64,000 bases of DNA from Antedon mediterranea (taxonomy: Eukaryota > Animalia > Echinodermata), in assembly GCF_964355755.1 (NCBI RefSeq), contig NC_092672.1:36338437-36402436 (forward strand), given 5' to 3'. Below are positions 626 through 42,464 of this stretch, piece after piece. The position numbers were made by a program, and so were the translations under genes. Numbering within the stretch: the stretch's first letter is position 1; every line of letters starts with the position of its first letter. Below the pieces are notes generated by a model. The model searched no databases and had not been told where the DNA came from. It saw nothing but the letters and a program-made list of their open reading frames with translations.

Positions 626-2845
626 ATGACAAAAGACAAAAAGTATAAAGCTGATCGCCGATCAAGTAATATAGAAAGAATACTTTAATATCTATATACA
701 TATCTTAGAAAAGAATTCTACACACAAGTCAAACAAAATCAACTTTACATTATCGTTATAATAAAATAATATCGATTAAAGAAATATAAAATTTACACTC
801 AAATTGTAACACTTTGACAAGTATAACTAATGCATTTTAGTAAACTATCGGTATTTTATATCTTCAGTGTTGTAGACTAAAGTTTCATTTTATAAAAGAA
901 TGTTATTGGTATGTAGATGGCGTCAAAACGACAAAAAGACGACATAATTTGTTTAAAAAAATATCAGTTTTGCACCAAGAAAGTAAAAAAAAATTTGAAT
1001 TGAAATCGGGACGTATTAACTATGACATTACCAGATAGGAGTCACCAACGCAGGAATTTATTTTCAGTTACTGTCGATAAGGGGCGCTCTCTAAACACGA
1101 TTTAGTTTATGTCGATCATTAAATTGTACAAATAGGGAACTCTTTCCTGGTAAAACTAATGTTTTAAGTTTCACCAACTAAATCTTTCTGAATTATTATT
1201 CTTTAAACATTTGATAATTTTTTCCTACATTTCCTTTTTACTATTATCATTTGTCTATTTAGTTCAACAATGTATTTTGTACTTTAGTACTGTTGGTTTA
1301 CTTCAGAATAAAATAGAAATAAATATGATGAGTAATTCTAATAGCGTAATAATACTTTTAATTATTAAAAACATACAAAATACATTATTATTATTATTAA
1401 ATATTGGTAGTGTTGCTCGATAATTGAAATTAATCAAAATAATCTTCAATAAAATAGATGAAGACGTCAAGAAATAGAAACAAAGCAACCGGAATAAAAC
1501 CCATCGCAATGTAAAAACTAATATAATTAACTACAATTATAAATTACTGTTGATTAAATAAGAATGGTTTGTGTACATTTCTACATCTTCACCACCCACA
1601 GTTTTTATTAATTAATAATCGTTTGACCTAGGTGACCTCTGATGGCTAGTTTTATGTAACATGTTGTACCAACCTACAATTTGCTAATGTCTATTTAACG
1701 GACTAAAGTGACAATCTGCGGAATCAACTATAAGAAACATCATTATTTATCTTATTCTTCAAAGTTAATGGTTTTCCAACTTTAAAAAAAACTCATATAC
1801 TATTGGTGGATACCATGATTAATGAAATTATTACAATGATCCAAAATAGACATAAAGATTGAAAGAACATTTAACGTACACATGGCGCACCGTGGAATGT
1901 TATGTACACTCAAGTTACTAGTCAAAATATGCAACTAAAATTTAGCAATATATACAGTAAAGGTGTAGCACCAAAGTAGGTCGTTCGTTGGTAACAATGG
2001 TTGGAAATCGGTATTGTTTTAATCACTAAAATAATTGAAAAGTTTTCAAGAAAGAGTAAATAAAAAAAAAACACATTGAAGTTAACTTTACTGTTCATAA
2101 TTGAATTCACACAAATTTATAAAAGTTGGATTAGAAAAACGGCACGTTTGGTTATGTAGCAATAAAATATCTTGTTTCTCGCATATTGCCACCAACTTTA
2201 TTTTTCAACAAAATAATTGGTATACAGTGAATGTTTTGGAATTGACATTTCATAGGTCTTTTGGGCTACAATTTGGTTACTTTTGCCAAAAGAAATCGCT
2301 TATGAGTAGCCACTAATGAGTCTTAATTGTTTTGTGTGATACCTATAAATGAATAACATCTCAACATTTTTTAACAACATTGTTTGTTACAATAGTAAAG
2401 TACATAGAAAGGGACATGAGTTGTTGCATAGATGATCATAACATTTCAATATTTCTTTTGTAGATGAAATTGTTCATAAAACATATTTATCTTTGGTTTT
2501 ACAGTATACATGACTACTTATAAATATATTGAAAAAATAAAAATATTTTATATGATTTCAAATTTAGAAGACAATAATTTGTTTCTATATACTGACGCAG
2601 CAGAAAAAAAGCGTTGACAGGTGAATATGCAAATGAGTAGTAGGCAGGTGTAATGTATGCGAGGTATCCATCTTGATCTAGGCGAATTGGATGAGTAAAA
2701 TGATTGCTATGACAGCAAGCAGTACAAGACAACAGCAGGCGATATAGAACTTCTTCTGCAATTTGAAATATAATAAACACATAATCCACAAGGCCTTTTA
2801 CAATATACGAAGAATATCTATGTCTACATGTGTTTGTTTTCTTAT

Positions 2846-3555: not shown

Positions 3556-5770
3556 ATGTTTTTAAACTGATGATTTAGAAGATGACATAAGCATGCACAA
3601 AATATTGCATTTTCGTTAGTTTGCATTGTTCTGATTACTAACCAACAATTAGAAAACGAAACATTCATTCAAAGGAATTAGAGTAGGAATTTATTAATTT
3701 GTTAAAGGAAATACTTGCATCTATTAGTAAGTTAGTTTGTTAGTACAAACTAATTGTGTGTTTTTAATTCAGACATTTGCATTATTTATTATTAATTACA
3801 TTATATTTATATTAATCTGTATTAATATTAATTTTAAAATTGCACTAATATGTTCATATTCTTGGGTAATATTAATTTTTTTTTTTTAACCTTATATTCA
3901 TTTTAGTTTTTTATAATTATTTAAGATAATCGTTATCATTATATAAAAGATAATCTTTCAAATCAAGCATGAGAAGGTACAGGGCAGACATGCGCAAACG
4001 TTATTGCCAACAAGCCATGCATATACTTATATAGCATATAACTTGAATAGAAAGTTACATAATGTTTAAAACACATTGATGATGTGATGGTCCGATGAGA
4101 TTAAATGTTGATAAATACAATGATAACAATGAGTCCAAGTAGAACACCAACTGTTATCAATAGGTAGAATCTTTTCTATATAAGACAAAGTGCATGTATG
4201 AATCAGACAGTGTTATGAGAAGGCTATTTTATTTATTTTCCGCACAGTGGCGTAACAGCTAATCCCGGGGGTCTTAAGGTGGCCCATGAGCAGTGCCCAG
4301 AGAAAAAACAGGAATTAAAATGTACCGGAAAGGCTACAAATGTCCGAGCCCTCCAGCGTTGGAACTTGGAGGGCCACTTAGGTGCCTAAACCAGGGCCCG
4401 CTGCCTCTGCATTACACCACTAGTTCTGCACCACCTGAAGATGGTTTATTACTTTATTCGAATGGTATTTAAGAATTATGCATGCATGCATTATAAATCA
4501 TATAATATATGAGTTTAAACAGTAAGAGTTAAAAAATAAGAAAAAAAGGAAGAAAATGTTGAATTAAAAAGTTAAACTTTAAGATTAGTAAAGGAAAACA
4601 TATAGCGTACAAAAAGTAAGTAAAATATTATCAAAGACTACCGGTAATAAATAAAATAAAAGCCGATATTAGAAAATGTTAAAAAGTAAATAGATGATTG
4701 ACTAGTTTCTTCAGTAAATAATTGTTACTAAAGAACTACTATGGCATTACTGCATCAACTGCAGTACATATTTATGATAATTTTTAAATGGTTTGGTAAT
4801 ATCAAAGTTATTTTTAAACAAAGGCAGTACAAATGTTGTTGATGAAATTATTAATTTGAAATTAATAATTTGAGTGAATAAAGCAAAATGTATTTAAATT
4901 CTATTCTACATAAAAAAGCAAAAATATAATAATATACTCCAAAAAAAATAAGTTTATACAAGAAAGATGAACGAATTCTTACCTTTTATCATATAGTTGT
5001 TTTTATCCATGCTGCTTATTTAATGTTTCTTTAAATATAAATTAAGTTAAAACTTACCACATATGTGTTCCTTTTACATCAGTTTCATTTTTCACTTTTT
5101 TAAACTACTATACATTATACTGTTACTTCAACACTCAGTGAACAGCAAGTACGTAACTTACAAGGATCAGAAATAAAAGCTACGTTTCCCTTTAATTAAG
5201 TTTAGGTACTGGTGAGACCATGCAGGGATTTTTAGCACTGTGGTAGAGCCTTGTAGAATTTGTAGGCTAGCATATTAACCAACACCATTATATCACGATA
5301 ATTGTGTTGACAAACTGTATACTGTATTACGACAAAACATTATTAAATCATAAATATAATCAGCTAATCTAAAACTAATTTAATACTTTAAAGAACATAA
5401 GTATAGAAAATAAGTAAATAATAAACAAACAAAAATAAAATGATAAATACAATTCTACATATATTTTAAGCAACAACTTCCAAACACTATTTGATTTTAT
5501 ACTGTAATCAAGAAATGGGGGATAACAGTTTACAAACACTGACAAACAAAATACTGTATGAATCTGAGAATATAAAAAACACAAAAACACGTGTTCTCAT
5601 TTCCAACAAGGAATTTAATTGCAATTATCACAACTACCTGATAATTTTTCATACAATTTATTTATTATATTGTTCTGCTATATTATTAATAACAATAATA
5701 ATATTAATAATAGTATTTTACTACACAGCTAAGGCCCAAATGCCAATTTACAGAGCAAAAATAGTCAGTA

Positions 5771-9213: not shown

Positions 9214-9291
9214 TTACATGAACTTTAAGGCAACAAAACCAACGAGGCAACTGATTAAAACTGTGCAACCAGCTATCATCATGAGTTTTTT
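9214..9291 (-). CDS. STX1A: Syntaxin alternative last exon T3 (transmembrane anchor)
   Basis: atctttacag|AAA AAA CTC ATG...: [25 protein letters not shown], phase 0, 78 nt including TAA; acceptor nearly identical to that of T2. Confidence 0.8.
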   Translation of the reverse strand, partial: KKLMMIAGCTVLISCLVGFVALKFM

Positions 9292-12200
9292 CTGTAAAGA
9301 TATAAATTACAATCCAGGTGGCTTTAACCCAGGTGGCTTTGTCCGTAAAATTCTACAGAACGACTACATAAATGACAGTCTTTCAACAAAGATTTCCACA
9401 TATAACTTCTCATACAGGAACAGAAACACAAGAATTATATTGTTATACAAAATAGAGTTTGTTACCCATCTTAGACATTTAAATACAATGTAGAATGCTG
9501 TATAGTATTACGACCAAGAAACCAAAACACACAGTAACTTTTGCTTATTTAAAAAGCAAGCCAAAAAGTCTTTAGTGGGAAGTTAATATTGTCAATTTTA
9601 AGCAGGTTTTTGTAATTGATCAACGAATCACACTATAATCATTACACCTAGTTACAAATAGCATTAATAAGCAAGCAACTTTACAAAGAATTTTTCTTAC
9701 GTTAGTTAAAAACTGTTTACAAAGCATAATGTTATTAGATTACTATTTTACAGTATTGGATACATTCAACAACTTAAACTAACATTGTGAAAACAGTTTT
9801 ACAAATAATTTATAAATTTAAAGAATCAAAAAATTAAATACAATACAAATAACAACAAAACCAAAAACAAACAAAAATCTTTAAATAGTTTCAAATTTGA
9901 GAAGTTGAAGTTTCTATTATAACAATGTTAGCAACCTTGGGATGGATAAGTTTATACTAGCTAAAGGCAGGAACAAATTGACTAGATTCTAACAACAGTA
10001 CTGCATAGTTTGTGCTAAAAATTAACCGATTAACATTAGCCAATAATTTACCTATAGACAATACTGCAAATATTTTGTTCAAAAAAAGTTATATTGTTTT
10101 CATTTGATATATACAGCTCGTCATTGGTCTATGAAAACAAAGCCAATAAAGATATTATGAACAGCTATAATTAGAATAGAGTTTTACATTCAAAGTAGGT
10201 ATATATCATCCACTATATTAACAAGATTGAAGAAGCAATGTACACTAATTGGAAGTTCTATCTGTTGACATATACTATAAAACAACTTCACAATATTAAA
10301 TCACAGGAGAATCTGACCACCTCTTAAAAAAGGAAAGGGTTTAATGATGAAACCCTTTTGTTTAGCAAAATTAATTTTTGTTGGTGGGGGGAAAATTTTC
10401 ATAAATATACAGATAATATCTGAAAGTTATTTGATTAATTATTTAATAACCAAAAAAATACTGATTTTGAATTCACGATCATCAATACCTGTAGAGTAAT
10501 TAAGCTTAAGAATCATTATTACTGAATCTTATTCCTACACTGCCTTCACATCATCTTACTAAACCTATCTTAAATTGATCTATCTGCCTTCTGTTTAGTG
10601 TTATAAAATTTTTATATTTCCCTTATGCGACCTTTGACATAATGATAACTCCAACGATCCCAATCAATGCCACACAAGCCAGAATCATCATAATTTTTTT
10701 CTGTAAAGATACAAAAACGGAATGGAGAAGCTTCTTCTTTTAACTTTTCTCCAAGTCTTGTGAAACAACACGACAAATGTATTCAAAATCTTCTAACACG
10801 GGGTTACAAAAAATACATAGAAAGAGGAAACGGAGAGAAATTAAGACTTTGACTCCCATCTAGTTTGAGTGAAGATGAGATACCTAAATCTTAGAACATT
10901 CACAGTTCATTAAAGGCTCTAGATGGTAGGTCAGTTTTACTTTCTCTCACTCTTGTAACTAATCACGACGGCGAAGGTACTAAGATAATAATAAGGATCG
11001 CTATAATTACGAACAAGACACCACAGCACAAAATTATCATAATTTTTTTCTGCAAGAAAAGAAAAAGAAAGAGAACTGCAAGCAATTTTATCAGAAGAAA
11101 TGGGTTTTTTGTTGGAATACTTTTTCTGTCCTCTTATTACTTTTTAAAAAATTCTGTTTTATTCAACTAAACAATGTCATTAAATTATTGGGTGTGTAAA
11201 TGACAATCTCACAATCTGTTTTCCGAAAACTTTCTCAATGACTGTTAAGTCTGCATTATTTTATAGATGCCCTTCAAGCTGGAAAAAACCAGTTGATATT
11301 AATGAGCATCTACTTTTGTTAAATAATTCTATAAATAACCAAATTGTTTTATTATATGAATAATTTAGTATAAATAATGACTTATTTTCTTATTCAACTT
11401 TACCCAATATCAGCAGGAAGTTCTCTTTTTGTTATGCATCTGGACAAATTTTAAATTTATTAATCACAAAGCGTCCACAAATCACAATATTTATTATATA
11501 TAACTATAAAAAGTTATTATTAAACACAAATTATAAGAAGAATTGATGCGTTTCCTCAATTATAATCAGCAATTTAAAATAATGTAGAAATTTTAATATT
11601 TTATATAATGTGAACGATAAATTGAAATTGAAAGAGACACACTTATTAATAATACTCGCAAGATAATATATTTTTTTTTAGTTTTTGTTGATTTTTCTTT
11701 TTTTAAATATTCATACTTTTTTTGGGACTGAAATGGAAACTAATTCTTCTGTATATAAAGATTAATTGGGTCTTCCTGAATCTATTATGTTTGATTGTCA
11801 TTTTTTGTTTATATACAAACAAACTTATTAAGTTTTAGTCACGATCTTACCCTTATAATATAACTTTCAGAACCCTAAATTTTCACTATTTCACAATTGA
11901 TAGTGTCTCATAAAAGTCCCAAAACTTGAGGGCATACAGACTTTTTCTTTTTTTAGTACCACTTGTAGAACCATGATGGTAAGTAACATTTCTCAAACAA
12001 ACAGTGCTTCGGAATAATTTAACATATGGTACAAAAGCATTTATTTTCACTAGTGAAGTTATTTCAGCAAGCATTTTATTTTTCAGTATTATTAATTTAA
12101 TATTTGTTTTATTTTTTGTTGGAATATATTGAGGAAACCATCAATTCTCATAAAGTGTTAGTAAAGTAATTTTAGTATACAATATTAAATTTTATTAAGC

Positions 12201-15200
12201 CACATTTCTGGTGACAAGCAAGGAATACTACTGGATTTAAAACAATGTCTATCTAGGGAATTAAAGATTAAAAATATACACACTTTTAGTACATCATACA
12301 CTCTGTACTACAAATCTATTTGTAAATTGCAGCTACATTACAAAATTCATTTATCTAATCACATATTATATAAATATTTAAAAAACAAATCATAAGTTTG
12401 TTTTTAATGTACTCATTTTTTAAGAAAAGCAGAGTATCTTAAAAAATGATGGTACATTAAAAATTTATCTTGTGATTGTTTGATTTTCGTAGTAAACAGT
12501 GCAGATATGAATGTGCAGAACATGTCAGCATGCGTACAAATAAATATATTAAAAAAAATTTGACTTACAAATTCAAAGTGAATATATCAAATAGATGAAC
12601 TATAAATATACTTCTACACAAAAAACTTGTACACAAAATACTGTGACAGTGGAGATCAACAGAGGACATTTTTTGAACAAGTGAAGAATTCTGGAATTTT
12701 TTGGAATGTTTTGGAAAATTCCGGACAATTCGCTGTACAGAAACTGGACAGACCATCTCTTCTACTGTACATGTTTTATTTATAGACTTGTGGACACAAT
12801 GATAGAGCCATACAATATTACCTCATAGCAACAAGAGATGCCGAAATTAAGTCTAGGTGGCCAGCTCTTTCTGGCGAGGCTATGAATTGCATGGCCCGCC
12901 TCAAGATTCAAGAAATTTATTGGTCCACTTTAAAATGGAAATTTGTTTTGCTCTGTTTCCTATTTCTTTGTTTTTTCTTTTCTTTCTCAAAATATTCCTA
13001 TATTTTGGATGAAACCACTGAACAGTCAAACATGAAAAACAGCTAAAAGTACAACTGAAACATGCAAATTGAATAAACAACACTAAAAATGGAAACATTC
13101 AACAAAACAGAAGAAAAACTGTCATTCAATAAAACAAAAATATTGAAAAATGAAACTTCATTATATCATAATAAACATATTTTAACTTTACAAGTGATCA
13201 TGGTGAAAATATTTCAAAATATAATATACAAAAATATAAAATATGTAATTTAAGCAGAAGGAACATACATAATGCATATATACAGGGAATAGTCAGAGAG
13301 GGAACTACAAAGAACAAGCATACAAAATCACAATTATATCGTCAACTATCCTAAAGCTAGCATTATTTAATTATAACCCAAAATATCTTTACACTCTTAA
13401 GCTCTGTCTACACTATCAAACTTTGTGTGACAAAAAAATGTGATGTGCCCTTATATGGACACGATTATGTCATATTACAACCATATTTGGGCATATCACA
13501 CTTTCTTTGTCAAACTAGTTTAATAGTGTAGACAGAGCTTTTGTTTGTGATTTTCTTGAGTTCGTTATCGGAGTTGAGTTGACAGCATCCCTAGCATTAT
13601 TTTAGACTAGTCCTATCATTATACTTCTAAATTTTACATAATTGATTAAAGTCACTATCAAATGTACAGTTTAAAAACTAATAAATAATTTTATTTTACT
13701 TTACAATTAAATCAATTGCAAGACTTCGCTACTGTACTTGGTCACCATGCCAACTATAAAAACATCAATGTTACTTTACAAACAAATATTTATAACAAAT
13801 ATTATCTACACATCAAATTTGTTTCAAATGCCTCAACGTGCTGACTGTCAAAATTGAAAAACACATTAAGTACAGATTCGTTAAAATAAGGGCGCTATTA
13901 CTTCCAAAATTTACTATACACCCGCAGTATTGACATTTTGACCTCATCAACATCAGAAATGTAGTATAGTATAAATTGTACACTTTGAAACAAAGTTTGT
14001 ATTTTAATTTTGGCAGCCAGAAGTTAAAAACATTCAAATGCACGTTTTTTATAATAACATCAAGCAGGTTGATTTACAAACCACTATCATCGAATGTAAT
14101 ATATTTGTATCAACATCAACTGAATAGCAAATCCTATTTAATTATGTCAGTTATTTAAAGATACACAAGATTCAGATGCATAAAATATGTTTACTAATTT
14201 AATAGTTTTGAATACGGTACATTATTACTGTATTGATTTAAAAATAAGTCTACTTACAAATTAAAATGTTTTATTCAAATATAGTGAAAAAAAAAACCTT
14301 GAAAACTAATTGTGCTCTATTATAGTACAGGGGTGTTCTAGGAATTTAAAATGTTTGGAACCAAGCCCTTCTTGAGAGCATGGGCTATTGTCGGTTTATT
14401 CAGGTAAGCTAGGCACGAAATATTCCTAATTAGTAGTACTATATTTATCCTATATTTTTCCTAATTTGGTTTATACTACAGATACATCATGCATAGGTAA
14501 CTACATTACCAATGAAAAAGAGGTTCAAAATCTTATTTAACAACATCTTCTTTTACTAAAACATATTCCATAAAGAATTTTAATGAAAGAATTTTGATTG
14601 AAGAATTCATTACTGGATTAGTTTATCAAACTTCAAAGGGGGTGGGACATTAAATGTTACTCAATTTTCTATATTAAAAATGGGAAATAAATTTTTAATG
14701 TTTTTTTTTAAGGAAATTGAATCTCTTTTCATTAAATCTATCACAAAATCAGTAACTAGCAACGGAAGTACAGAAGGAAAAGCATTTATACTTACAATGC
14801 AGGAAGAATATAGAGATCTCGTGCAATGTCTGGTGCAGATATGTATTACCATAATGTACCTACCTTACGTGCTTTGCTCTGGTACTTTACTGCCTTCTTA
14901 GTGTCAGCAACGGCTGTTGTAACATAGTTGACTGACTGCTCAACATTATATTCAATTAAATCTATCATTTCGCCCTACCAAACCCATGTAAGCAGCCATG
15001 CAGTAAAAAAGAATACAAGAAAAAAAAAACAGAAGACCTGTTAGTTGCGTTATTTCTTTTGTTTTCACTTACCCGTCGAGCTTTGCTTTGATAAATAGTG
15101 GCTTTTTTTGTTTCGATTTTTGCCGTTTCTACGAAATTAACCGATTGCTCTACATTAAACTCTATTTGATCGATCATCTCACCCTATGGAAGCAATATTA

Positions 15201-18200
15201 GTGAGAAGAACGTTTATGAAAGAACACACAAAAGAAAGTGGTGAAAATGATGAAAACTATAGCTGTGACCTCTGACCTGATAGACCTTAAGTGACCTTCG
15301 TCACCTTACCTTACGGGCACTACTTTGATATACAACCGCTTCTTGTAATTGTTGAGTGCCTTCTTTAATATAATCCACTGCATTTAAGACGTTGTTTTCT
15401 ATGCTATCGATCATATCGCCCTAACATCAAGTCAAAAAATCAAGCACATTTTCCATAAAGACAATTTTAAAAATACAACTGCCTCAGAAAAAGATATTCC
15501 ATTAAATGAATTCTTCTGATAATGGCTGGATTATACTGGAGATATCATGATAATGTCTATGACAAGTGCAACAAAGATTTAAATGAAGTGACTGACAATG
15601 AATGAAAGAATATCTGCTGGTCTGTCACAATCCAAGTCTTCAAATAAATTTACTTAAAACAAATACTGCAACAGGATACATGAAGGGTTGCTGACTGCTA
15701 TCAAACCAGAAGAGCAGTAAACTGCTATGCAGATGAAGTGTGCATCTTTAGTTATGAGGTGTAGGAGAGTGGTTATTTAAGATAATCTGAATGAAGATGC
15801 TGTCCGAGCAAGGCAATATAATTAGATTGCCTTGGTCTGAGGAATAAAAACTTTCTCCATTCCCAAATTGTGCTTACTATTTTTTGTATGATATTGTCAT
15901 CCTCAATTGGGGAAATTCAGATTAGGCCTCTACAGACCCACAGCAGCCATAGTTCAGCGACAGGGGCCAAGAAGGACTAGTAAACCAGGGTAACCCGAAA
16001 GATAAACTGGGTTGTTTAAAGCCAGACGGTTTTAAGTCTTAACAAGAAGACTAGTTCTATGACCAGACCTACTGTCAAGGAAAGGCTTAAACATGTGCTG
16101 GTTATATTGCTATGGCTCCTTCTTCTTAACCATTCAGGCAAAATAAATCTACTACTTTTTATGGAGATTGAAGACATGATGATGAAACTGAATTCAAACA
16201 ACATAATGTTTTTAAAGCTTATTATTGTTCATAGCCACTTTCCTTGAAGTATGACCTATAGGTAATGTGAAATTATGATGTGCAAAAACAACTCATAAAA
16301 AACTTTAAAATAATAGTTTTGACAAAAGCCAAAAAACTCTTTAAAAATTGGTACTGTAGGTACACTGCCAAATTTTGAAACAATTGAAATCAGCCGACAT
16401 TATAAAAGAATAATGGAATTTAACTGTAGTAGTAAAACTGTAGATCACCTAAAAATACTGATATCTGAAAAAAAAGTGTTTCTGAAACAAAACAGTTTGT
16501 GACACATGACAATGAACAAAAGTGGTTACATAGTTTATTTACAAATGACATACTGTATGACATCAGATGCAAGTTATAAGCATCAAATTCAAGGCCCAGG
16601 TCATACTTCAAATTGTTTAAACTACAAACAAAATGGGTTGTTTCTGGTTGCATTGGTGCCTCTGAAATAGTACTGTAGGCTAACTATTCAGGCACCTCTG
16701 GCTGTCCATAGTTTTAACTCTAAAGTATGTATGCATTAATGGTGAAAGGGAAACTAAAATTGCTGGTGTACTTTATTTAAAAGATAATGCTTTCATTTCT
16801 CTGCCTTGACATAAAGTTACATTAGCAAGGTCCTCAATGGTACAGTACATACAGTGAATTAAAAAAGCTTACCTGGGTCTCCAAAAGGGTTGCCATGTCC
16901 ATAAACATGTCGTGAAGTTCAGTGATACTTTTCTCAAGTTTAATGATATCGTTATGCCTTGCTTCGATATCCTGTAACGTCTGTTTAGCTTGTTGTGTGT
17001 CCATAATAATCTACAAGAAACATCAGGTCAACGTTTTGTATCCTATTTGGCAAAAGTCGCTATACTATGAATTTGATTATCATTAATTAATCAATAACAT
17101 TTGTATATTTAACTGTCTTCAGATTCAATGAAATCAGAGAATATTAATTACAAGCCTTGTCTACACTATCAAACTTTATGTGACATGACCTGATGGATAT
17201 CACCACCATATTTAAACATATCACCACCATATTTGGGCACATCACACATTTTTTTCAAACTAGTTTGATAGTGTAGACAGAACTTTTGGAGTCATTCTAC
17301 ATGCTGACTCAAGTCTGTAGTATTGTCTTATTTTATGTTAGTCCACCACTTGGCGTTTTGATTTTTGTCTGAAGTATTATACGTATGAAACGCCATATGT
17401 GCCAAAATATTAATCTTTTTATTAATATTAAGTCAAAACACAGTCTAGAAACTAGACTATCATGGTACAGTCTTAGTTGTAGACAACAGCAGTCGCTGTA
17501 CAGTGGCTGCATTCACCTATCAATCCTTTGTCAGGTACATTTATTTATTCTTTCTTCCTTTATTGTCAATAAGGTAATGAAAGCACTCAGGAACTGAGTG
17601 AAGTACTTCGCAAAATATATCAAGGAAAAATATTCAGAGAGAGAGGGCTCTGTACTATTTGTTTGTTTGTTTTATCTTTATACTGGGTGACCTCTTCAGT
17701 CAAAGACTGATCTCCCAGAGGGCCCAGTTGGTGATCAGTGGCTGTGATGTACTAATACACCGGGGTAACCCCCTACTCGTCTCGAAAGATGTACTAGGTT
17801 CTTTAAAGGGCACACGAGCAAGTTGTGTACACTGGACCTACGGTTTATAGTCCTTATCCGAGAAGACTCGTTCTACCACCAGAACCATGGAGTGAGTGAG
17901 CCTCGAACCCCTGCCGATGTTATAGCTACGTGATTACGGTTCCACTGTCTTAACCACTCGGCCACTCACCCACCTTTGGTCCATGTTAAAAGAATACGAT
18001 AATTGACAAAACTTAAGTATGTACTGTAGCTTCCACAGAACAAACAGCATCATTATTATTAATGTAATTTAAAATGTAGGTTTGTATACATACTCCTGAT
18101 GTGAATATTGCTGGGTTACCGGTTTCCAACATGTCCTCCAATTCATCATCTGTAGTCGTCTTGCCGGCTAAAAAGAAAACAATAAATTTTATTGTAAATA

Positions 18201-19650: not shown

Positions 19651-19681
<31 letters not shown>

Positions 19682-19934: not shown

Positions 19935-20003
<69 letters not shown>

Positions 20004-23000
20004 CAACAACAATTATTAGTACTGTAAGTATGGTGAAAATAAATACTTTTCTTTAAAACAAAATCTTTTAGATTCAATAAAAATAACAGAATCTACAGTA
20101 ATATCAGTATTTCATACAAAATGTCTGCCTGCTAACTATCATTAGACAGAAGTGAGTTAATACATCCAAGCTGTGTTACAACATATTGATTCAATATCTA
20201 TGAATGGACGGCCAGAAGCAATGACCTGCTCATTGTCTTTTTACATTCAACCTATTTTCAACACCAAAAACCCTCAGTCAGTTGCCAGCTGATGTAAATA
20301 GACACAAGTACAAGAGAGAATATTGATTAATATAAAGGAAACATATATTGTAATAGGATGCCACATGATACATTTAAAGGGACAGTTGAATAATATTCTA
20401 CCAGCTGACACAATTAAAGGGACAGTTAATTTAAATATAAGCTGATAATCTTAAAAGGACGCATTTGATTTACCATTAACTGATATACTGATATTTTGAA
20501 ATTAAAGGGACAGATCAATTAAATATACTACATACAAGCTGACACAATTAAAGATGCAGTTAATTTAATCTTAGCTAATAATCTTAAAGGGACGTGTTTG
20601 ATTTACCACAAACTGATATATTCATATTTTGAAATTAAAGGGACAGATCAATTAAATATTCTACTACAGTAGCTGACACAATTAAAGGGGCAGTTAATTT
20701 AAAATAAGCTGATAACCTTTAAGGGACGTGTTTGATTTACCACTAACTGATATACTGACATTTTGAAATTAAAGGGACAGATCAATTAAATATTATAAAA
20801 GCTGACACAATTAAAAGGGCCAGTTAATTTAAAATAAGCTGATAATCTTAAAGGGACGTGTTTGATTTACCAAAATTGAACTGATGCTATGAAATTTAAA
20901 GGGACAAATATACTATAGTACAAGCAGTACTACAGACACAATTAAAGGGACAGGGAATGAAAATGAACATACTTATTTCTAATTGTCGTTGAATTCTTCC
21001 TTTACATCGTTCTCTGTAGTCTGTTTGTGTGCTGTTGTAGTCTGTCATCACCTCAACAAACTTTCTTGACAAAGTTGTGTGCTAAAACAAACAAGAATAT
21101 ATTTTTAATCTAGACACTGTATCTACTTTGTTAACAAATGACAAAACATAGAATATGAGCTTCAGATAATACATTTTTATTTTATACATTTTACTTCAGT
21201 TGCGGGTTTTAATTTTTGACAACCGAGGTCAGGTCATTCTATATGCTGTTGGACGTCGTAAATCAAAACTGTGTCAAGGTGTGGAGCGAGGAAACACAGC
21301 CTAATAAACCCCAAATGTGTACAAAGATTAAAAATGATTTTGTTTGGTCTTCACAAACCTTAAGCTCTGTGTATACACTATCAAACTTACTTTATTTGAC
21401 AAAAAAGTCATATATAACCATGATGATGTCATATCACTACCATATTTGGGCATATCAAACTAGTTTGATAGCTTCCTATAGTATAACATTACCACAACAG
21501 TAGTTGTAGTAATTTTATACATTTTTTTTTTTTATTAAGTTACTGCAGTTAAATTTCAATAGAAGCTGCAGTGATTATACAATTATGGTTTGTCAATATT
21601 TTACTGCAGTGCAGATAATTTACTGCAGTAATGAGATTTACCTGTGTTTTTTGAATTCGGAAATCTGCAGAAGTTTTCTTGCCCTCATTTTCTATACTTT
21701 GCTCCATAACTAAAATTAAAAACAATAATAAATAAAATTGTATTTAAATTCCAATAAATTAATATTCTGTACTGTGGAAACACAATAGTCTCTTATAAAT
21801 CAAGAAATAAAACCCAAAAAAGGTATATTATAGTGCTGAAGTTTTTGATCTAATAAATTTGATTTTCCAAAAGAAAACATGTTATGAATACTATACAGAG
21901 ATCCAGATGAACCTTTATACTAATGTTCGAATTTGATTTGATTTTTAAGAATGAAAGTATTTTAAAATATATAATCCACTGTACTATGACAGTGAAAACT
22001 AGTATATCTACATGTTCATCTATATTAGCCTAATAATGTTTCAAGTAGCCATCGTTCTTGCATGTTAAAATTAAAGACTTGCCGATGACACTGTGCAACT
22101 CATCTAATGTTGCCTGTTTATTAAGACACAAATCAACTTGTTCTATATTTAGCAATCAGCACTCAACAACATTCATTCATGTCAAGAGCTTTTTTCACAG
22201 TTTAAAATGACAGAAGGCAAGTTATTTTATTTATTATTTATTCAGGCAAAAGATACATTTTACAAAATACAAATAATAATACAGGGGTGTTCTAGGAACT
22301 TTTTACTTTCATATCTAAAGCACTCCCTCTGGAGAGAACGGGCTGTTGTCGGTTTATACAGGTAAGCTATGCACGAAATAGAACAACAAATTAAACAAAC
22401 AAAACACAAGGAGAAAATATAAAATCATAGTCACTACTGTAGCTGCCAGGAAAGCACAATAGTAGCCACTGTCACCAATTAGGTGTGTACCGTAACATTT
22501 TTTTCTATTGTCTGACTTAAAGACCCTACAGTATCTCTCACAATGTGAAAGCAAGTTTGTCAGTTGGTAGTCTGTGAGAGTGCCCCTTCCCTACTTACCT
22601 GGATAAACTGACATTAGCCCTTCTCTCTAAAGTGAGCGATACAATATGAAGTAAATACAGGTGTAGTTTACAAAAAGTGAATTGTACATTAAGATGTTTC
22701 TTTGATGTGACTTAGTGCCACTTGCCAACTTACCTGGATAAACCGACATTAGCCCTTCTCTCTGTTTAAGTGAGAGATGCAATATGAAGTAAATACAGGT
22801 GTAGTTTACAAAAAGTGAATTGTACATTAAGATGTTTCTTTGATGTGACTTGTGCCACTAACCTGGATAAACCGACATTAGCCCTTCTCTCCGAAGTGAG
22901 AGATACAATACGTCAAATACATAGTAGTAAATACAGATGTAGTGACTTACTTTTAAGTTCGTGTCTCACTTTGTTGGCACTAGTCTTGATGTCCGCCATC

Positions 23001-26000
23001 AGTTCTTCCATTTCTTCCTTAACTCCTACAGATAAAAAATAAAAATCATTATCATACACATCAAAATCTTCAATCATCAATCAAGAATGGCAACTCTATT
23101 GACATCTTTAAACAGTTGCTAAAAAACCCATCTCTTTCGCATAGCATTAAATGACGTAATTTCCATTTAGTTCGAGCCTTTGGTCTTTATAGAAAAATTA
23201 TTTTGGTTAAGCGCTATACTTCTAACCTGACCCAAGAAAAATACTTATACTTTAACTGATTCAGTCAGTGTTTAATAATAGTCTTCTTCCTCGAGAGAGG
23301 TCTAGAGCATTTATTTCCCAATACTTACTGTAGGCTAGCTCCAATACTTAGGCTAGCCCCAATACTTAGGCTAGCACTAGCAGCCAAAGATATTATAAAC
23401 ATTATACAAAAATTAAATACAATATTAATTAATTTCAAATTAATTATCAGTATCACCGGGTCGAATTTTTGCTTGTTAGTATTAATTCATAATTTCTTTA
23501 CTACTGATTGAACAAAAAAGAAAACAAATTAATGTTACTTTAAAAAATCATTAACATTTCTTATTTAATTAATATCTATATTAAATTCTATTTCAAATTG
23601 AAAACTTAAAATGCATCTGGTGGTTCAATAATTAAAAAAACATAAAAATCATGATTTTATTTTTATTTACTTTTTTCACATGCAGTAAAATTGTTTTTAA
23701 ACGCATGTTTCCTTTGCAATGCACTTAATATACATGTGAATTTCATTTGGGAATTTTGTTCTATTTCATTATAAATATACGCACAACTATAGTTTATAAT
23801 ATGCTATATAAAGGTGTTCATAACCGCATACACCTATCTCTGGACTCTTCCATTACTGAAAAGGGGTTAGTATTTAACTCTTTGATTTGAACTCGGAACC
23901 GATAATTATGTTAACTTGTTTATCTGTTGTTTACTTTATTTTTAATTTAATACAGTAGTTATTAATTTTCCAACAATGTTAGTACTAGTAATAATAAATA
24001 CATTTACTAGGTAAAATCATATTAATAATATCTTGTACTTGTGCAGATATTAAGATATTTGATGGCTGGTGTTGATATTTAAACTTGGTTTGGTTACAAT
24101 TATACAAATACTTTAAATGGAAGAATCCATTTTACAAAATTTGATAAAATAATTTTTTTTAAATGATTTGGCAGTATTCTTTGCACCTGCTAACATGCTT
24201 AATTTCATAAGCAATTGATTGGTAAATTTTGACTTTTATTCAAAGACACCAGCAATTTTATTTCTGGTCCAGTAGCCCTCAGAAGCCCTGTGTTCACCAG
24301 TGTGTTGTGTACAGTATTCTTAACAAAAACAATCTCTCATTGTTTAGAATCTTGTGAAGCAAAATGAATTTTGAAACAAAGAAAGTCAAAAAAAGAGAGT
24401 AATTAATTATTATAAGTTCTGCCTTTTAAATCTATTGTTAATTTGTTTTTTATAATAGAAATGTTAATGTTACAGTACATATTTCATGTCTACTATTAAT
24501 TTATGAAATTTTATTTAAAAAGATTTATTAATTAACGATTAACCCATAGTGGAATAAACTATGCTTTTAATTAAAATTGAATAATTAAAAATTTAAATTT
24601 TCTACATAACAGTATTATTTCTATTCTGCCAATTAATGATTATTTAAGATGATCCCTGGCGGTGTATGTCACTTCTCAATGAATGTTTTGCGTAAAGTTA
24701 TTTCTAAGATGATCCCTGATCCTAGATAGTTGTCAATAAACTCCCTGTGTAATTCTATCCATATTGATAAGAAGAAGTATGTATTGATCATTGGAGCGTA
24801 GCAGATGCGGTTCAAAAGAAAGACTACGGCGTGATTACGCATCATTACGCCAACGTACAGTATCTATGAGTTACAATTCTACCACAGAATCGGAAAATCA
24901 GAATATTATAATATATATACATACAATATATTTAAAAAAAATATTACATTCGAAGAAATTAATGTCAATTTCAATTTTGCTTGTGAGCATTTGACCAAAA
25001 AATTTTCAAAAATATTATAATAATCAAACAATTCTACTGAATCAATTATTTAATTTCATTTCCTCATCACTCTCCCCAACTTCTTTTATTCCATCCACAT
25101 AAACATCAAAAGTATTTTTATTTTATTTTTTTATGATTTTATCTCTCACCACATCATAATCATTAACTCAATGACTACTGTATCAAATTACAACCAAATA
25201 TGTTTATTTATACCGTAATAAATAAAATAAAAAATAAATAAAATAACTATTAAACATTTAATAATTAATAATATTTTAGTAAAGTACTGTAGTTATACTG
25301 ATTTTAAATTGAGGAAATTGGTGTTAAATTTATAAAATTATTTTCAATAGAAAATTTAATGAGAGGAATTGAGAAGAAGACAATGAAACCATTTTCTAGA
25401 TCAAATAAGTGGTTAAATAATTACTGTAATTTATAAATTATAAATAAAAAAATAATAATAATTTTCCGTCACCAACTTGGGTGCTTTTACTTTAAATTGG
25501 AATTGGTTATAATGTCTCGAAATGTCAATATTTTTGTCAATTAAAAATGTTGTATTGAAATGGCTAAAATTATTCATTCAACAAGGCCACTTTACCATTC
25601 CTGTTTGTAATATGTACAAAAATATGTGGTGAATTTGACAATAAGTTGACATAACCGAACAGTGAACAAACTAAACAGTTTTTTTTATTACATTTTAAGA
25701 TTCCACGACTGAATCAGTTGTTTCTATCATGGAATGCTACTGCAAATATCGTATCCTATTATTTGTTAGCAAATCAACATAATACTTTTTTCCTTTTAAT
25801 TATACTGTACACAGAATGTACAGTAGTACTTACTGAATGTACAGTATTATCATTTTCTTATTAATCAATCTCACATACAGTTTTCTAATATTTGTAATAA
25901 AATTATTAATAATTATTAATATCCTAAATTTGTTAGCAAATCAACATAATACTTTTTTCCTTTTAATTATACTGTATATACTTAGTACTGCAAACACTGA

Positions 26001-29000
26001 ATGTACAGTTAGTACTTACTAAATGTACAGTATTATCATTTTCTTATAAATCAATCTCGCATATAGTTTTGTTTACTATTTGTAATAAAATTATTAATAA
26101 TAATACATAACTGCAGTATGGTTTTGAAAATTATGAAATATTCATCGTTGATTTGAGATTAAAATCTGTATTCACATTGAATAAATTAAAATATAAAATG
26201 AATTTTTTTTAGTGAATCATTAATTATCCTAATTTGAAAGGGTCACAAAGGGGTAAAAACCCAAACTTAGTCATTATGTACTTTTGCAGGGAGGTGCATT
26301 ATAAAAACTGTGGACCAACAGGAGCACAGTTAACCTATATTGACATAGTACAGAACTTCAAAGCATACTGAACAATCATTTAGTGCTTATTTTGATATTA
26401 AGCCTATAAATAAATAAGTGATGCCCACACAATAGTGACAGAGAATTTATACCATGATGACCTTTGGACTAGTGACCTTACCTCGCCCAATGTAATATAC
26501 TGTAGCATACTGTCAAACCAACCAACCATGGAAACCAATTTCAAAACATTTTATGTGAAGGGGGTGGGGGAAGTGTGACGTTGTTAAACGTATATATTGC
26601 AATTATTAGTTGCAAGAAATAAAATGACAGACGACTATTACTCCTGACTGTGACGTCATACACACATATATTGGATATAGATTGATATGTGACATCTCCC
26701 TTTTTCTTAAATAACAACAATCGTAATAGATAGATATGTGACATCTCCTTTTTTCTTAAATATTAACAACAACAATAATCGTAATCAAAATATCAAACTC
26801 TTAATGAAACAATTAAACTATGATGATGAACATTTGGGTATAATAAAACATGAATATCTGGCAGAGAAATTATGAACAATGAGTCTTTTAAACATTATTT
26901 GTCCATGTTATTAAATCATCAAAACGTTAAGACACACTATTTCCCTTTGGTCTGGTGATGACTACCTCTTCCTTTTGAGGATCAGGTGTCCTCGGCGGAG
27001 TTTCGATAGGAGTTTCATCCACTTCCCCTTCAACATTAATATCTTCTTCATGTGATTGATTTAATTGTCGGCGATTGCGTCTATACACTTGTCCGTTTTG
27101 CGTAGCGACCATATATGAGATCAATGAGAGAGAGTGTAACTTTATTCCAAAGCATTCTGAGAACTCCCGACTGTGACGTCATACACACATATATTGGATA
27201 TAGATAGATATGTGACATCTCCCTTTTTCTTAAACATTAACAACAATCGTAATAGATAGATATGTGAAAGGAAGTATACAGTTTGATAATGTAGGGAAAT
27301 GTGTAAATGCATAGTATAATTGTAAAGCATCAAATACAATGTGCTCTGTGTGTGTGTAACTATTTCTGGATCCAAATCATACCTCTACACAAAATTATTC
27401 ATTATTTCCTTGACGCTATTGTTTATATATTCTTTTAATTCATTCATATTGTTTGTACTGTGCATACGGTACTGCATATTGTACTGTATATCCTTTAGGG
27501 AGTGGAACAGGAATAGTACAACCCTTGTGTTAGGCCAGGATTGAACTATGGACCTTGGGATTGGAAGGCAAGCTTGTTAACCACAAGATTCACTGTACTG
27601 GAGTAACTACTGTATCACCAGCTCCACACATGTACTGTACAGTACAGCAGATTTCCATCTATAGTATAATTACTTAACTTCTGTAGTTAAGATAAACTGA
27701 TAATAGTTCATACAATTCATTCGTCTAGTAAAAATGCACACTCTAATGTAATACCATGGACTTATACAGTAAATTAGAATTGTATAGATACATGCTAAAA
27801 TATAATACACTAACTCATGAAGAAATTGAATCGCAATTATGTTAAATCATATCAATTTAAGCAATACTATGCTCAACATGCTGAAAACAATTTTTAAAAT
27901 ATATAGTAGTACACCATGTAATGTACAGTACGGTATCATGTATTGTGTAACAGAAAATAAAATATAACTTAAGTCCCTACAAACAAGATACACTGACAAT
28001 ATTGAATTTACAAAGTGTTGTATACTGCATAAAGTGCATTTGCCTTAAATTATGATTGTGTAGACTGTGAAACAAATTTCACACTGTTTTATTAGTTGGT
28101 ACATACAGTATGATGATTTAAATGATCAACATTTGAAATGTTATTCAATGCAGAGTGTGATAGCTTTACTGTAGTACTGTAGATAGAGGTTAGTGACCCT
28201 CAGTATTTTGAGATACCTGTACCTACTGTACTCAATATACAGTAGATCATCTTCATTTTTTTTTAAATTAGGTCAAAATTAAAATTAAATTAAAATTATC
28301 AATAAATGAAAACAATAGGGCATATTGTCCCTAATTGCAGTAATGTCAATTTTTAACTTAGTTAATTTAATTAAGTTTAAATATGAATGAGCATACTGTA
28401 CAGTTTAATCAAAATTAAAATGTACCTAAATAAATTAAATATACTTATAGATAGAATAAAGTATTACATATACTATACTACTATAATTGAAGAAGGGGTT
28501 AAGGGTCAATACATTTATTCAGGAGGAGGAGGACCTTGTGTAATTATTTTTTTCGAATTGAATTATTTTAATAATTTGAGGTATAATTAATTATTGCATA
28601 GTTAGAATAAGACTTGTAATTGATTGATCTCTTACTTTCATCTGGTTGCGGAGCTGATAATATATCACTATGTTTCCGTTTTACCTCATCTACGTTATCT
28701 GCTATACGGTCGATGTTTTCACGTATCTCTTCCACCTGATCAACAAACGAAAGTTAAAGAATAAAAGCCATGCACACACAAAAACTAGAAGTGGGCTTTA
28801 AATTATCTGAATGATGTACAGTTAACATGACTGAGTGTAGAGTCCAGTACAAAGTACAGTGTTCCAAGAACCCAAAAAGTCACAGTTACAAAAATTAAAG
28901 ACATTGGTAGAAAATAACAGTCAAGATTTTTGTACAATATTTGTGAACTTTTTTATACAAAAACACTTGAAAAAAAAGAAAAAACAACAGATTTGTTAAT

Positions 29001-31183
29001 CAGCATACAATACTGTACTTTTTCCAAAGCTTTATAAATAGTATACTGTACATTCAGAAGTAAATGTGCACATCACATTTTTTTTGTCGCATGAAGTTTG
29101 ATAGTGTAGACAGAGCTTAATGTAAAGATGTTTGATTGATTTATCTACAGAAATAATTGTTCACCTTTTCAAAAAATTTATCCATGAAAGTTTCAGCGTC
29201 CATGTTGACAGCAACATCATCTGGGCCAAGTCCATCCTCCTCATCATCATCAGTCTAAATATGGAGTGTACTTTATTAATATGACGACAAGTGATTCATC
29301 AGTGATGAATAAAAATCATTAATATGCTAATTGAGTTTACAGTAAGCAACCTTTAAACACACAAGCAAGAATTATAATATAATTTTCGGTGAATAAATAG
29401 CAATTCTCAAATTTTGTGGAACCACTCGTTTTATAGTGACTATAAATAATACTCTGAATGCCTCATCATTGCATTCTGTCCTGTAATAAATGAGAATAAT
29501 GATTATAACATATAACATTAATTTAAAAACAGAATTGCAGAAATTACTCTGAATTAATTAATTTCTGCAGTAAAATTTACTTTTTCTACTCCAGTTCTCA
29601 GTTCAATATTACAGATATAAGATTCTTAATTAATTATTTCGTCCCTGTTTAAATGAGTAATAAAAATATCACCATGGTTAGGATTCCGGCACCGGAACTC
29701 AACTGCCCAGCGTTAGGGAATCCGACACGCAATTGCGCATGCCCAGAGCGAGGTAATCGGCGATCGACTCTATTTTTGTCTACAACAGACTAAAGCGTGG
29801 TTCCCACTAGCGACACAACACAAGGACGTAACGCAACGCAAGTGAATTGAACAATCACAAGCGATGGCTTATTCGCTTGTGATTGCTAACTGTCTATAAC
29901 TTCGCTTGTCATTGGTTAAAACGCTTGCGTTGCGTTTATGTCCTTGCGTTACGTTCTAGTGGGAACCAAGCTTTACTGTACGTAAGCGATGGATCATTTT
30001 AATAGCTGCACTACGGCGAACTAGCCGGCCTACATGCCTACTAATACTACTAGCCCTACCAGCTAGATGTGACCATTGGGCCTATTTATTTCGTAATTAA
30101 AAAAGTCGTTGCTTCATTCATATATAAACTTTATATAATTATGAATTATAATTACATGACTAGGCCTAGTTTTAATTTTTATGATTTTTCAAGTACAAAA
30201 TAAAAGATTTCATATAACGCATTTATATTTTATACTGCACATAACATCATGCAATCGTATACAAGTTGATTTGTTGACAGCAGCCGCCGTGCAGATGTGA
30301 AAAAAAAAATTGTTCAGGAGAAGTCGGGGTCGCAACGCTACGCTATTCATTTTCGTACATTTCTTGAAATACGCAAGCTGATTCTTATCAATATCATAAT
30401 AATTATTTTAACGCGTGGCGTAATTATTAATTCATGTATGGCCTAGGCCAAGTTTCATCCATCGCTCTCTCCCCCGCACGACGACTAACTAGGCCACAGC
30501 AAAGATAGTGACACAGTATCTTTGGCTACACAGTACATCCCTAGTTAACACTCCGACTCTCGGGTAATGTGGTGCGCGGTCTGTGGCACTAGTGCAAGCT
30601 ATAATTACTTCTCTCTGGGCATGCGCAATAGCGTGTCGGATTCCCTAACGGTGGGAAGTTGAGTTCCGGTGCCGGAATCCTAACCACGGCGTAAAAATAT
30701 TATTAATGTCAATGACACGTCTATTTTCTAACGCTGACATTTTATTTAATAAAAAATAAACAATTATTATTTGTATACATTGTATTAATAATTTAATTTA
30801 CATGCAGTCCATCCATCCCACATTGGCTACACTACTACGGTGGTATGAATGCATGGCGCAGTTTGAATTACAATACATCACAAAAATACGGGGAAATATG
30901 GTCGGCATATTGGGTAGACCTGAAATTAAAGTTCACATGAACCTGCTGATAAAATGTACAGTAATAAGCAACAAGGGGATTAGCTATGCTCTGATTGTCT
31001 AGGATTGACAGTCTCCCAGTCCTACACACAAGCAGAGGGAGCCCAGCCAGGCCAAGAATAAACAAGATTCGGCAGCAGCAGCAGCAGTGCGAGTAGAAAA
31101 GCAGGCTTACGATCGATGAATTTCTATTTTTATAACAGATGATATCCACTTACCCTTTTCAATGATCCTAATCTATCCCTCAT
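9214..31183 (-). CDS. STX1A: Syntaxin-1/2/3 family plasma-membrane Qa-SNARE (about 290-293 aa depending on isoform)
   Basis: Constitutive exons, all GT-AG with matching phase: 31154-31183 ([10 protein letters not shown]), 29165-29254 ([30 protein letters not shown]), 28636-28735 ([33 protein letters not shown]), 22951-23025, 21642-21709, 20973-21081 ([36 protein letters not shown]), 18094-18167 ([25 protein letters not shown]), 16873-17010 ([46 protein letters not shown]). Then one of three exon-9 variants and one of three last exons. Motifs are diagnostic of syntaxin-1; as an invertebrate gene it is probably co-orthologous to several vertebrate paralogues. Confidence 0.96.
10623..10700 (-). 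CDS. STX1A: Syntaxin alternative last exon T2 (transmembrane anchor)
   Basis: atctttacag|AAA AAA ATT ATG...: [25 protein letters not shown], phase 0, 78 nt including TAA. Confidence 0.85.
   Translation of the reverse strand, partial: KKIMMILACVALIGIVGVIIMSKVA
10963..11049 (-). CDS. STX1A: Syntaxin alternative last exon T1 (transmembrane anchor with CC motif)
   Basis: Long polypyrimidine tract then gcag|AAA AAA ATT ATG...: [28 protein letters not shown]; KKIMII.CC resembles the vertebrate STX1A juxtamembrane/TMD start. Confidence 0.88.
   Translation of the reverse strand, partial: KKIMIILCCGVLFVIIAILIIILVPSPS
13400..13539. mobile_element. PIF/Harbinger-like MITE family A (TIR AGCTCTGTCTACACTATCAAACT)
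   Basis: About 23-bp TIRs, 140-180 bp long, T(A/T)A-type flanks in most copies. Other copies: 17153-17284, about 21363-21470 (partial), about 29060-29117 (partial), about 34618-34752, 41103-41262, 42027-42204, about 43583-43680 (partial), about 45968-46454 (interrupted), 50087-50227, 51455-51616, 52828-52987. Superfamily inferred from termini and flanks only. Confidence 0.85.
14864..14974 (-). CDS. STX1A: Syntaxin exon 9c (SNARE motif C-half, variant 3)
   Basis: ggtag|GGC...AAG|gtaggt, 111 nt, phase 0-0: [37 protein letters not shown]. Confidence 0.92.
15073..15183 (-). CDS. STX1A: Syntaxin exon 9b (SNARE motif C-half, variant 2)
   Basis: catag|GGT...CGG|gtaagt, 111 nt, phase 0-0: [37 protein letters not shown]. 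Confidence 0.92.
15310..15420 (-). CDS. STX1A: Syntaxin exon 9a (SNARE motif C-half, divergent variant 1)
   Basis: gttag|GGC...AAG|gtaagg, 111 nt, phase 0-0: [37 protein letters not shown]; no stops or indels; heptad hydrophobic positions retained. Confidence 0.88.
17657..17974 (-). mobile_element. tRNA-derived SINE with Deu/Nin-like central domain
   Basis: Minus strand shows box A TGGCCGAGTGG, box B GGTTCGAGGC, body GGATAAGGACTATAAACCGTAGGTCC...GAGTAGGGGGTTACCCCGGTGT (resembles the Deu domain as recalled) and an (AAAC)n tail. Confidence 0.8.
18203..18472 (-). mobile_element. Second, 5'-truncated copy of the same SINE
   Basis: 18314-18470 closely matches 17756-17907; (AAAT)n tail near 18203-18216. 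Confidence 0.8.
19471..20005. repeat. (ATG)n microsatellite with ACAAATTACTGCTA spacers and internal inversions
   Basis: Direct inspection; pure (GAT)n run at about 19936-20003. Confidence 0.9.
20370..20955. repeat. About 120-bp tandem repeat built from AAAGGGAC subunits (about 4.5 copies)
   Basis: GCTGACACAATTAAAG...TTTGATTTACCA...TTTTGAAATTAAAGGGACAGATCAATTAAATAT recurs at about 20404, 20539, 20672 and 20801. Confidence 0.85.
22594..22925. repeat. About 130-135-bp tandem repeat (2.4 copies) next to the syntaxin exon 4 donor
   Basis: ACCTGGATAAAC(C/T)GACATTAGCCCTTCTCT at about 22597, 22732 and 22862. Confidence 0.85.
25761..26102. repeat. About 165-bp tandem duplication
   Basis: ATTTGTTAGCAAATCAACATAATACTTTTTTCCTTTTAATTATACTGTA occurs at 25761 and 25928, with matching downstream sequence. 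Confidence 0.85.
26574..27270 (-). mobile_element. Gypsy/Ty3-type LTR retrotransposon remnant (integrase C-terminal tail, PPT, about 120-bp 3' LTR)
   Basis: ORF 26927-27124 contains [19 protein letters not shown], the typical post-integrase motif of Gypsy elements; polypurine tract AAGAAAAAGGGAGA abuts TGTCACA; putative LTR 26574-26694 reads TGT...ACA. Confidence 0.75.
29670..30691. mobile_element. Non-autonomous Mutator-like (MULE) DNA transposon, about 80-bp TIRs, 9-bp TSD
   Basis: TIR C(A/G)CC(A/G)TGGTTAGGATTCCGGCACCGGAACTCAACT...GCGCATGCCCAGAG at both ends; TAAAAATAT repeated at 29661-29669 and 30692-30700. Confidence 0.88.
29794..29972. mobile_element. Harbinger-like MITE family B nested in the MULE element
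   Basis: AGCGTGGTTCCCACTAG ... CTAGTGGGAACCAAGCT with long imperfect palindromic arms; TAA/TTA flanks; degenerate relative at about 42210-42325. Confidence 0.8.

Positions 31184-34444: not shown

Positions 34445-42464
<8,020 letters not shown>

Follow-up and report, generated by a model that had tools for sequence, protein, structure and literature searches.

A stretch of 64,000 nucleotides from the crinoid Antedon mediterranea (NCBI RefSeq assembly GCF_964355755.1, contig NC_092672.1, positions 36,338,437 to 36,402,436), called the window here, was analysed for the syntaxin-1 gene on its minus strand. In this gene the exon coding for the second half of the SNARE motif was found in three tandem, intact and old copies, named 9a, 9b and 9c, together with five alternative last exons for the membrane anchor, and it is probable that one of each kind is spliced into a transcript.

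The identity of the gene was established from its products. All five Antedon mediterranea RefSeq isoforms were reconstructed letter for letter from exons of the window, and exons 1-8 translated to residues 1-228 of isoform P0003, which scored 138.7 bits against PF00804 and 51.6 bits against PF05739. The Habc domain, the SNARE motif with its zero-layer Gln and the C-terminal anchor of a plasma-membrane syntaxin (syntaxin-1 type Qa SNARE) were all present. With exon 8 as query 1642 proteins were matched, and 100% identity was found only in Antedon mediterranea and the crinoid Anneissia japonica, for which the protein clusters held 5 and 6 RefSeq isoforms, respectively. The zero-layer Gln is the final codon of exon 8, and the introns between exon 1 and exon 9a were about 0.43-5.6 kb long. 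The coding exons before the triplication, located by tblastn of P0003 and by translation, were as follows:

31154..31183, minus strand: coding exon 1, with the start codon and the N-peptide (tblastn identity 100%)
29165..29254, minus strand: coding exon 2
28636..28735, minus strand: coding exon 3 (Habc)
22951..23025, minus strand: coding exon 4
21642..21709, minus strand: coding exon 5
20973..21081, minus strand: coding exon 6
18094..18167, minus strand: coding exon 7
16873..17010, minus strand: coding exon 8, ending on the zero-layer Gln, with its donor at 16873

Three tandem copies of exon 9

Exon 8 was followed by three exons of 111 nt each (37 codons), all with phase 0-0, AG/GT flanks and an open frame:

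15310..15420, minus strand: exon 9a, divergent C-terminal SNARE-motif half, core layers IIVAIGLA, donor GTAAGG, in no Antedon mediterranea RefSeq isoform
15073..15183, minus strand: exon 9b, neuronal-type C-terminal half, core layers IIVSVATA, donor GTAAGT, in RefSeq X2
14864..14974, minus strand: exon 9c, neuronal-type C-terminal half, donor GTAGGT, in RefSeq X1, X3 and X4

The three peptides aligned without gaps with residues 227-263 of rat syntaxin-1A, the SNARE half after the zero-layer Gln, and 9c was the closest to it. Against the Pfam SNARE profile, with a cut-off of 26.8 bits, 9a, 9b and 9c scored 49.0, 38.4 and 42.6 bits. As adjacent homologues that agree in length and phase and have canonical splice sites, they were classed as tandem-duplicated exons. 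An earlier sequence-only reading of the window had described the same arrangement, with introns of only 126 and 98 nt amid long ones and without stop or indel despite many nucleotide differences, and the coordinates, flanks, frames and alignment all agreed with that description.

The copies differed from each other at 42-52 of 111 nt (pairwise identities of 59, 62 and 69 nt). Pairwise pS was 0.77-1.07, which is saturated, and pN was 0.18-0.38. When 9c was randomly substituted to the observed distance, it stayed free of stops in 12-14% of 20,000 trials, and the observed amino-acid identity was reached in 1 of 20,000 (9a) and 0 of 20,000 (9b) randomised versions. All three types were also present in Anneissia japonica, identical to 9a at 21, to 9b at 28 and to 9c at 35 of 37 residues, the b type being approximately as near to Antedon 9c (28) as to 9b (28). 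The trees span 37 columns, and the crinoid pairs alone are resolved in them, a-a and c-c and, weakly, b-b. Among 34 rows, stars fell on the a-a and c-c branches and on no others; in a 48-row tree, the a-type rows of the two crinoids stayed apart. One contig covered all three copies in three of the four sequencing runs (runs X2-X4, all of a single sample from which the assembly may have been made). In run X1, whose type was guessed, one contig stopped precisely at the donor of 9a, and this was not taken as evidence. Because the synonymous sites were saturated, pN was low and the counterparts in Anneissia were one-to-one, the copies are best read as an old duplication under selection, as had been proposed, and the spanning contigs and the second genus likewise bore out the claim that no assembly artefact was involved. 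The triplication is older than the split between Antedon and Anneissia, and purifying selection acts on the exon 9 copies.

A short dispersed repeat was seen three times inside the gene (about 13400-13540, 17150-17260 and 21420-21460), and its summed contig depth was above 80,000 in all four sequencing runs.

Membrane-anchor exons and isoform models

Five last exons that code for a membrane anchor were located by a scan of the window:

10963..11049, minus strand: TM1, absent from the Antedon mediterranea models, with a counterpart in Anneissia X6 (75%)
10623..10700, minus strand: TM2, in RefSeq X3 and, in another frame, in X1
9214..9291, minus strand: TM3, in RefSeq X4
4101..4175, minus strand: TM4, cysteine-free, found by sequence scan only and in no model seen
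2678..2755, minus strand: TM5, in RefSeq X2 and X5, and 88% in Anneissia X2 and X5

The scan gave five matches on the strand and stretch of the syntaxin gene and none in three control stretches. TM4 contained no cysteine and the other four anchors one to three, and all 15 combinations of an exon 9 copy with an anchor were open in frame. Neither the five anchors nor the STX3A/3B precedent considered below had been mentioned in the sequence-only reading. The window ends 2.7 kb past TM5, and further anchors may lie beyond it. Long GAT/ATC-rich tracts of low complexity were also noticed at about 300-650, 2780-3560 and 19500-20050, one of them directly upstream of TM5.

RefSeq isoform models generally rest on introns supported by RNA-seq. 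The five models of Antedon mediterranea combined 9b with TM5, 9c with TM2, 9c with TM3, 9c from a short donor with shifted TM2, and a skip of exon 9 with TM5. In X1 a second 9c donor was used, 5 nt before the exon end (14864-14869), so that TM2 (10700-10615, minus strand) was read in another frame and the product was a syntaxin without membrane anchor; an overlapping GTAAG occurred at the end of 9a, as at that of 9c. In X5 exon 9 was skipped (16873 to 2755, minus strand), which left half a SNARE motif on an anchor, and this form could be dominant-negative or splicing noise. The six Anneissia isoforms used a-, b- and c-type exons, each singly. The a-type exon appeared only in the Anneissia models (X1), and 9b and 9c in those of Antedon mediterranea. 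Across the 11 crinoid models one copy of exon 9 was present in ten, none in one and two in none. In Anneissia the b and c types were both spliced to the TM5-type anchor, and the c type occurred with three anchors there and with two in Antedon. Exon 9 and the anchors are apparently combined without strict coupling.

Exon choice, function and rival explanations

The following elements lie between the copies:

15184..15309, minus strand: intron 9a-9b, 126 nt, with an AG-free zone of 73 nt and a long pyrimidine tract from +54
14975..15072, minus strand: intron 9b-9c, 98 nt, with an AG-free zone of 63 nt and a purine-rich last 20 nt
15040..15046, minus strand: AACTAAC resembling a branch point, with the predicted branch A at 15041 (32 nt from the 9b donor) and an 85% pyrimidine tract after it

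If one exon 9 and one anchor are spliced per transcript, several plasma-membrane SNAREs would result, with a common N-terminal regulatory half and differing zippering ends. Frameshift and nonsense-mediated decay do not account for the choice: the copies stay in frame at 37 codons when included together, so decay cannot enforce it. Exons of OGDH, Tpm1 and actinin are kept apart by a steric lock, in which the branch point lies less than about 50 nt from the donor (PMC7969005). The predicted branch point of 9c, only 32 nt from the 9b donor, would fall under this limit and block the join, and in our judgement 9b and 9c can probably not be spliced together.

A similar anatomy was met elsewhere. Two profile matches for exon 9 were found in 14 of 80 metagenome loci, or in 13 after removal of L023, whose first match was a partial internal repeat without splice sites; these made up about nine distinct arrangements. 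L068-L070 were one sequence, and the second copy of L007 was cut by the contig end. No three-copy case occurred among the 80 loci, many of the single-copy ones being short or spliced, so that the absence of a second copy there says little. The intron between the copies was 16-83 nt long in 10 of the 13 two-copy loci, with one TACTAAC at +25 and one GCTAAC at +32. In two fish-like loci the copies were 220-238 nt apart with more than 200 nt free of AG and CTRAY at +32 to +34, a pattern that in one of them recurred in 1 of 2000 shuffles. One further locus, with an intron of 243 nt, had no distant branch-point pattern.

Several of these loci had features of their own. In the echinoderm-like L001 (498-784; its peptides match Amphiura) the copies were identical at 104 of 111 nt, in the reverse order of Antedon 9b-9c and with TACTAAC 25 nt from the donor; this pair is a recent duplication or a gene conversion. 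In L053 (1160-1397) the copies lay 16 nt apart, too short to splice, and were followed by two anchor-like exons. The second copy of L077 (214-678) had no donor and seemed continuous with anchor-coding sequence, like a composite last exon. In the fish-like syntaxin-1 loci L056 (361-802) and L057 (3270-3729) the upstream copy was highly divergent, and an AG-free pyrimidine tract of 200 nt lay between the copies.

Exons 9b and 9c had identical core layers (IIVSVATA), kept D231, E234, E238 and K260, and differed on the surface, notably at 248-249 and at 232 (Gln and Leu, the same in Anneissia). In exon 9a and its Anneissia counterpart layer +6 was Gly and layer +7 was Leu or Ile; both had lost E238, K260, lysines 252, 253 and 256 and, in 9a, the basic surface, and carried a net charge of -3. 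In mouse neurons, replacement of this half of STX1A by that of STX2 made the primed pool smaller and unclamped spontaneous release, and D231 and E238 are part of the synaptotagmin primary interface (PMC10957171). K260 controls palmitoylation of the anchor cysteines, and STX3A has neither (PMC9183232). Because of these data, 9b and 9c would serve regulated neuronal release, with D231, E234, E238 and K260 kept, and 9a would serve a constitutive kind of exocytosis under a looser clamp, comparable to STX3A or STX2; drawn by analogy, this division has about an even chance of being right. A wider proposal, by which free combination gives up to 3 x 5 = 15 proteins, the generic endosomal-like Qa core of 9a with its acidic surface shifts SNARE partners or clamping, and vertebrates parcelled out these options among STX1-4 after gene duplication, is speculative and rather unlikely.

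Position 232 had been singled out before, as none of the copies keeps the Arg of syntaxin-1A, and the gapless alignment confirmed Ser in 9a, Gln in 9b and Leu in 9c. As a special signal this loss was dismissed, since human STX2 and STX3A carry Asn there. Arg was kept in 22 of 30 distinct exon 9 peptides, and the R232N change by itself raised spontaneous release without altering evoked amplitude or the primed pool (PMC10957171); the loss of R232 is minor.

A number of points weigh against the reading of one exon 9 and one anchor per transcript and against the functions given to the copies. Single-copy use was read from RefSeq models and not from junction reads. The pattern of the 9b-9c intron recurred in 1 of 2000 shuffles and in 1 of 172 GT-AG 98-mers drawn at random from the window, the intron itself being among them, for a feature defined after the intron had been inspected, and the second fish-like positive was explained by composition (379 of 2000 shuffles). 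Intron 9a-9b had no CTRAY in its first 50 nt, its best consensus site being 15 nt from the acceptor, although a weak distal branch site is possible given the 73-nt AG-free zone. In a weak test without comparative genomes for docking/selector pairing of the Dscam type, none of 12 flank-intron pairs beat all 12 shuffles. At least ten database proteins from other animals hold two copies joined. Exon 9a diverged fastest between the two crinoids (21 of 37 residues, as against 218 of 225 for exons 1-8); 9a, TM1 and TM4 were in none of the five Antedon mediterranea models, and the anchor paired with the a-type exon in Anneissia had no clear match in the window. Every functional step was carried over from mouse neurons, and the Medicago SYP132 isoforms are largely interchangeable (PMC7145992).

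Inverted and direct repeats around the exon 9 cluster likewise gave no docking/selector candidate. No mechanism considered here accounts for the exclusion of 9a: the distant branch-point pattern is missing from the 9a-9b intron, a 9a-9c join cannot be prevented sterically, and no docking/selector pairing was found. Because sterics cannot stop that join, regulation by RNA-binding proteins is taken by default: 9a would be left out as a rule, with splicing regulators turning it on in some tissues, a tentative scheme to which we give slightly less than even weight. From the annotation models and the steric anatomy, the cluster is nonetheless likely mutually exclusive. The earlier claim of mutual exclusion was supported at the level of the models and by the 9b-9c branch point, with the use of 9a in Antedon putative.

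Among the alternatives, the most probable is that mutual exclusion operates between 9b and 9c alone, 9a being a decaying or rarely used copy in Antedon. The absence of 9a from the Antedon models, its low cross-species identity and the unmatched partner anchor speak for it. Against this, the frame of 9a is open and its sites are canonical, all eight of its core layers fit a helix bundle, and it scores higher on the Pfam SNARE profile than 9b or 9c; Gly at +6 and a bulky +7 are the same in both crinoids, Anneissia X1 uses the a-type exon, and a partner anchor may lie past the window end. We consider this alternative improbable.

An origin of 9a by capture from, or conversion by, an endosomal syntaxin (Stx7/12), which would make a chimeric SNARE with endosomal partners, was weighed as well. 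A HMMER scan with 9a among 1.84 billion representatives gave 25 matches. By identity over a single stretch the best were a divergent PF00804 syntaxin (58%) and two proteins of the Stx7/12 type (57% and 54%), with canonical syntaxin-1 at 51%. The a-type exons of the two crinoids tied between the endosomal and the plasma-membrane profile (53.8 vs 50.2 and 50.6 vs 49.5 bits), whereas the b and c types favoured the plasma-membrane profile by 35-43 bits, and the 48-row tree placed the a-type rows outside the canonical group. However, the first profile margin of 34 bits was circular and fell to 1-4 bits with three seed rows left out, and 37 columns give little resolution. The endosomal-like residues were clustered around layers +5 to +7; at VDY and AR the exon was still STX1-like. 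Gly at +6 and Leu at +7 also occur in plant SYP132, in the divergent PF00804 syntaxin and in an insect second copy, and so belong to a generic Qa core; 9a also matches 9b and 9c in exact length, phase and nucleotide ends. As the likeness is limited to these layers and is common to plant SYP132 and the insect copy, drift of 9a to a generic Qa core appears likelier than exon capture, for which we see little probability.

It is very unlikely that the copies are independent cassette exons, included together or skipped, rather than a locked set. Co-inclusion of 37 codons each would be in frame and escape nonsense-mediated decay, a skip-all isoform is annotated (X5), and joined double copies do occur in the databases, namely in beetle, cockroach, thrips, dragonfly, shrimp, fishes and seal STX3. 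The nine of these that were checked were genome annotations, and they are most likely gene-finder joins; for STX3, the gene of the seal case, exclusion is known. Two copies were found in none of the 11 crinoid models, the 9b-9c intron has the steric anatomy described above, and many introns of relatives (16-83 nt) are below, or only just at, a length that can be spliced. A doubled half would insert 37 extra residues between helix and membrane, where linker elongations are known to matter (PMC9183232). Finally, an assembly artefact or a neutral recent duplication, with the tandem layout and nothing else in its favour, was refuted by the single spanning contigs, the three matching types in another genus, the differences at 42-52 of 111 nt and the saturated third positions.

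The rest of the window probably held other genes. Exons at 40800-41650 (plus strand) were taken, from translated motifs, to belong to a Ran GTPase-like gene, and those at 52300-56650 and 60200-63300 (both minus strand) presumably belong to VPS37-like and eIF2B-alpha-like genes, judged by their translations. Near-identical stretches in opposite orientation, at about 35300-36000 and 62000-63050, are probably two copies of a mobile element.

Comparison with known systems

Duplicated exons of this kind have been described in several SNARE genes. Searches of the open-licence literature found no paper on an exon 9 cluster in crinoids or echinoderms, and syntaxins are not mentioned in the available main text of PMC9741552, the supplements of which may mention them. 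When the Anneissia a-type region served as query in a word-based search, nothing but the region itself was recovered, as one of the two candidates, within the limited sensitivity of that search. In named isoforms, two versions of exon 9 were seen in brittle star, ant and cricket, and a single version in the models seen for sea urchin, sea star and sea cucumber. In the two-copy cases of other animals the 111-nt copies stand in tandem, with short or AG-free introns and often with one canonical and one divergent copy, and the insect second copy has Gly at +6 and Leu at +7, as in crinoid 9a. Copy order and age vary among these cases, so duplication or homogenisation recurs.

In the steric systems OGDH 4a/4b, Tpm1 2/3 and alpha-actinin, a branch point near the donor, a long pyrimidine tract and an AG-free zone are found, as in the 9b-9c intron (PMC7969005). 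Unlike in those genes, the crinoid branch point is predicted and not mapped, and with three exons in the cluster a further mechanism is required for 9a. Medicago SYP132 alpha/beta is also a SNARE gene varied through duplicated, alternatively used exons, but it swaps a single last exon (PMC7145992). Exons 5a/5b of SNAP-25 (PMC2581893) are duplicated exons in a SNARE gene too, but the protein, a Qbc SNARE, forms a different part of the complex.

The syntaxin half after the zero layer sets vesicle priming and the tightness of clamping. Hand-made STX1A/STX2 and STX1A/STX3 chimeras have been used to probe this half, and the crinoid gene offers a natural three-way version on a constant N-terminal half, accompanied by five anchors that differ in cysteines. 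It also adds evidence that exon 9 was duplicated repeatedly across animals and locked by an intron that is short or has a distant branch point.

The closest precedent is vertebrate STX3A/3B, in which exons 1-8 are common and exons 9-10 differ (PMC11476516). In human STX3, exons 9A and 9B both measure 111 nt, lie 119 nt apart by the listed coordinates and have separate anchor exons; STX2 has two anchor exons, the STX2 and STX3 events are assigned to Bilateria and have counterparts in Daphnia, and homologous clusters of three exons are very rare in humans (PMC8373072). The crinoid gene shares with STX3 the family and the exon, the tandem 111-nt copies, the short intron, the alternative anchors that follow and the order, with the divergent copy first and the syntaxin-1A-like copy last. 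In the 48-row tree 9c grouped with an STX3B-like row at 89/90, not starred and over 37 columns. The crinoid gene differs in having three copies instead of two and five anchors instead of two, and its models lack the strict pairing of exon 9 with anchor. Nothing is overturned, as the layout was known from STX3: the crinoid design is a larger form of the STX3A/3B layout, mostly present already in the automatic annotation, and what is new is a third copy whose core is of the generic Qa kind, anchors missing from the annotation, and a steric anatomy that recurs.

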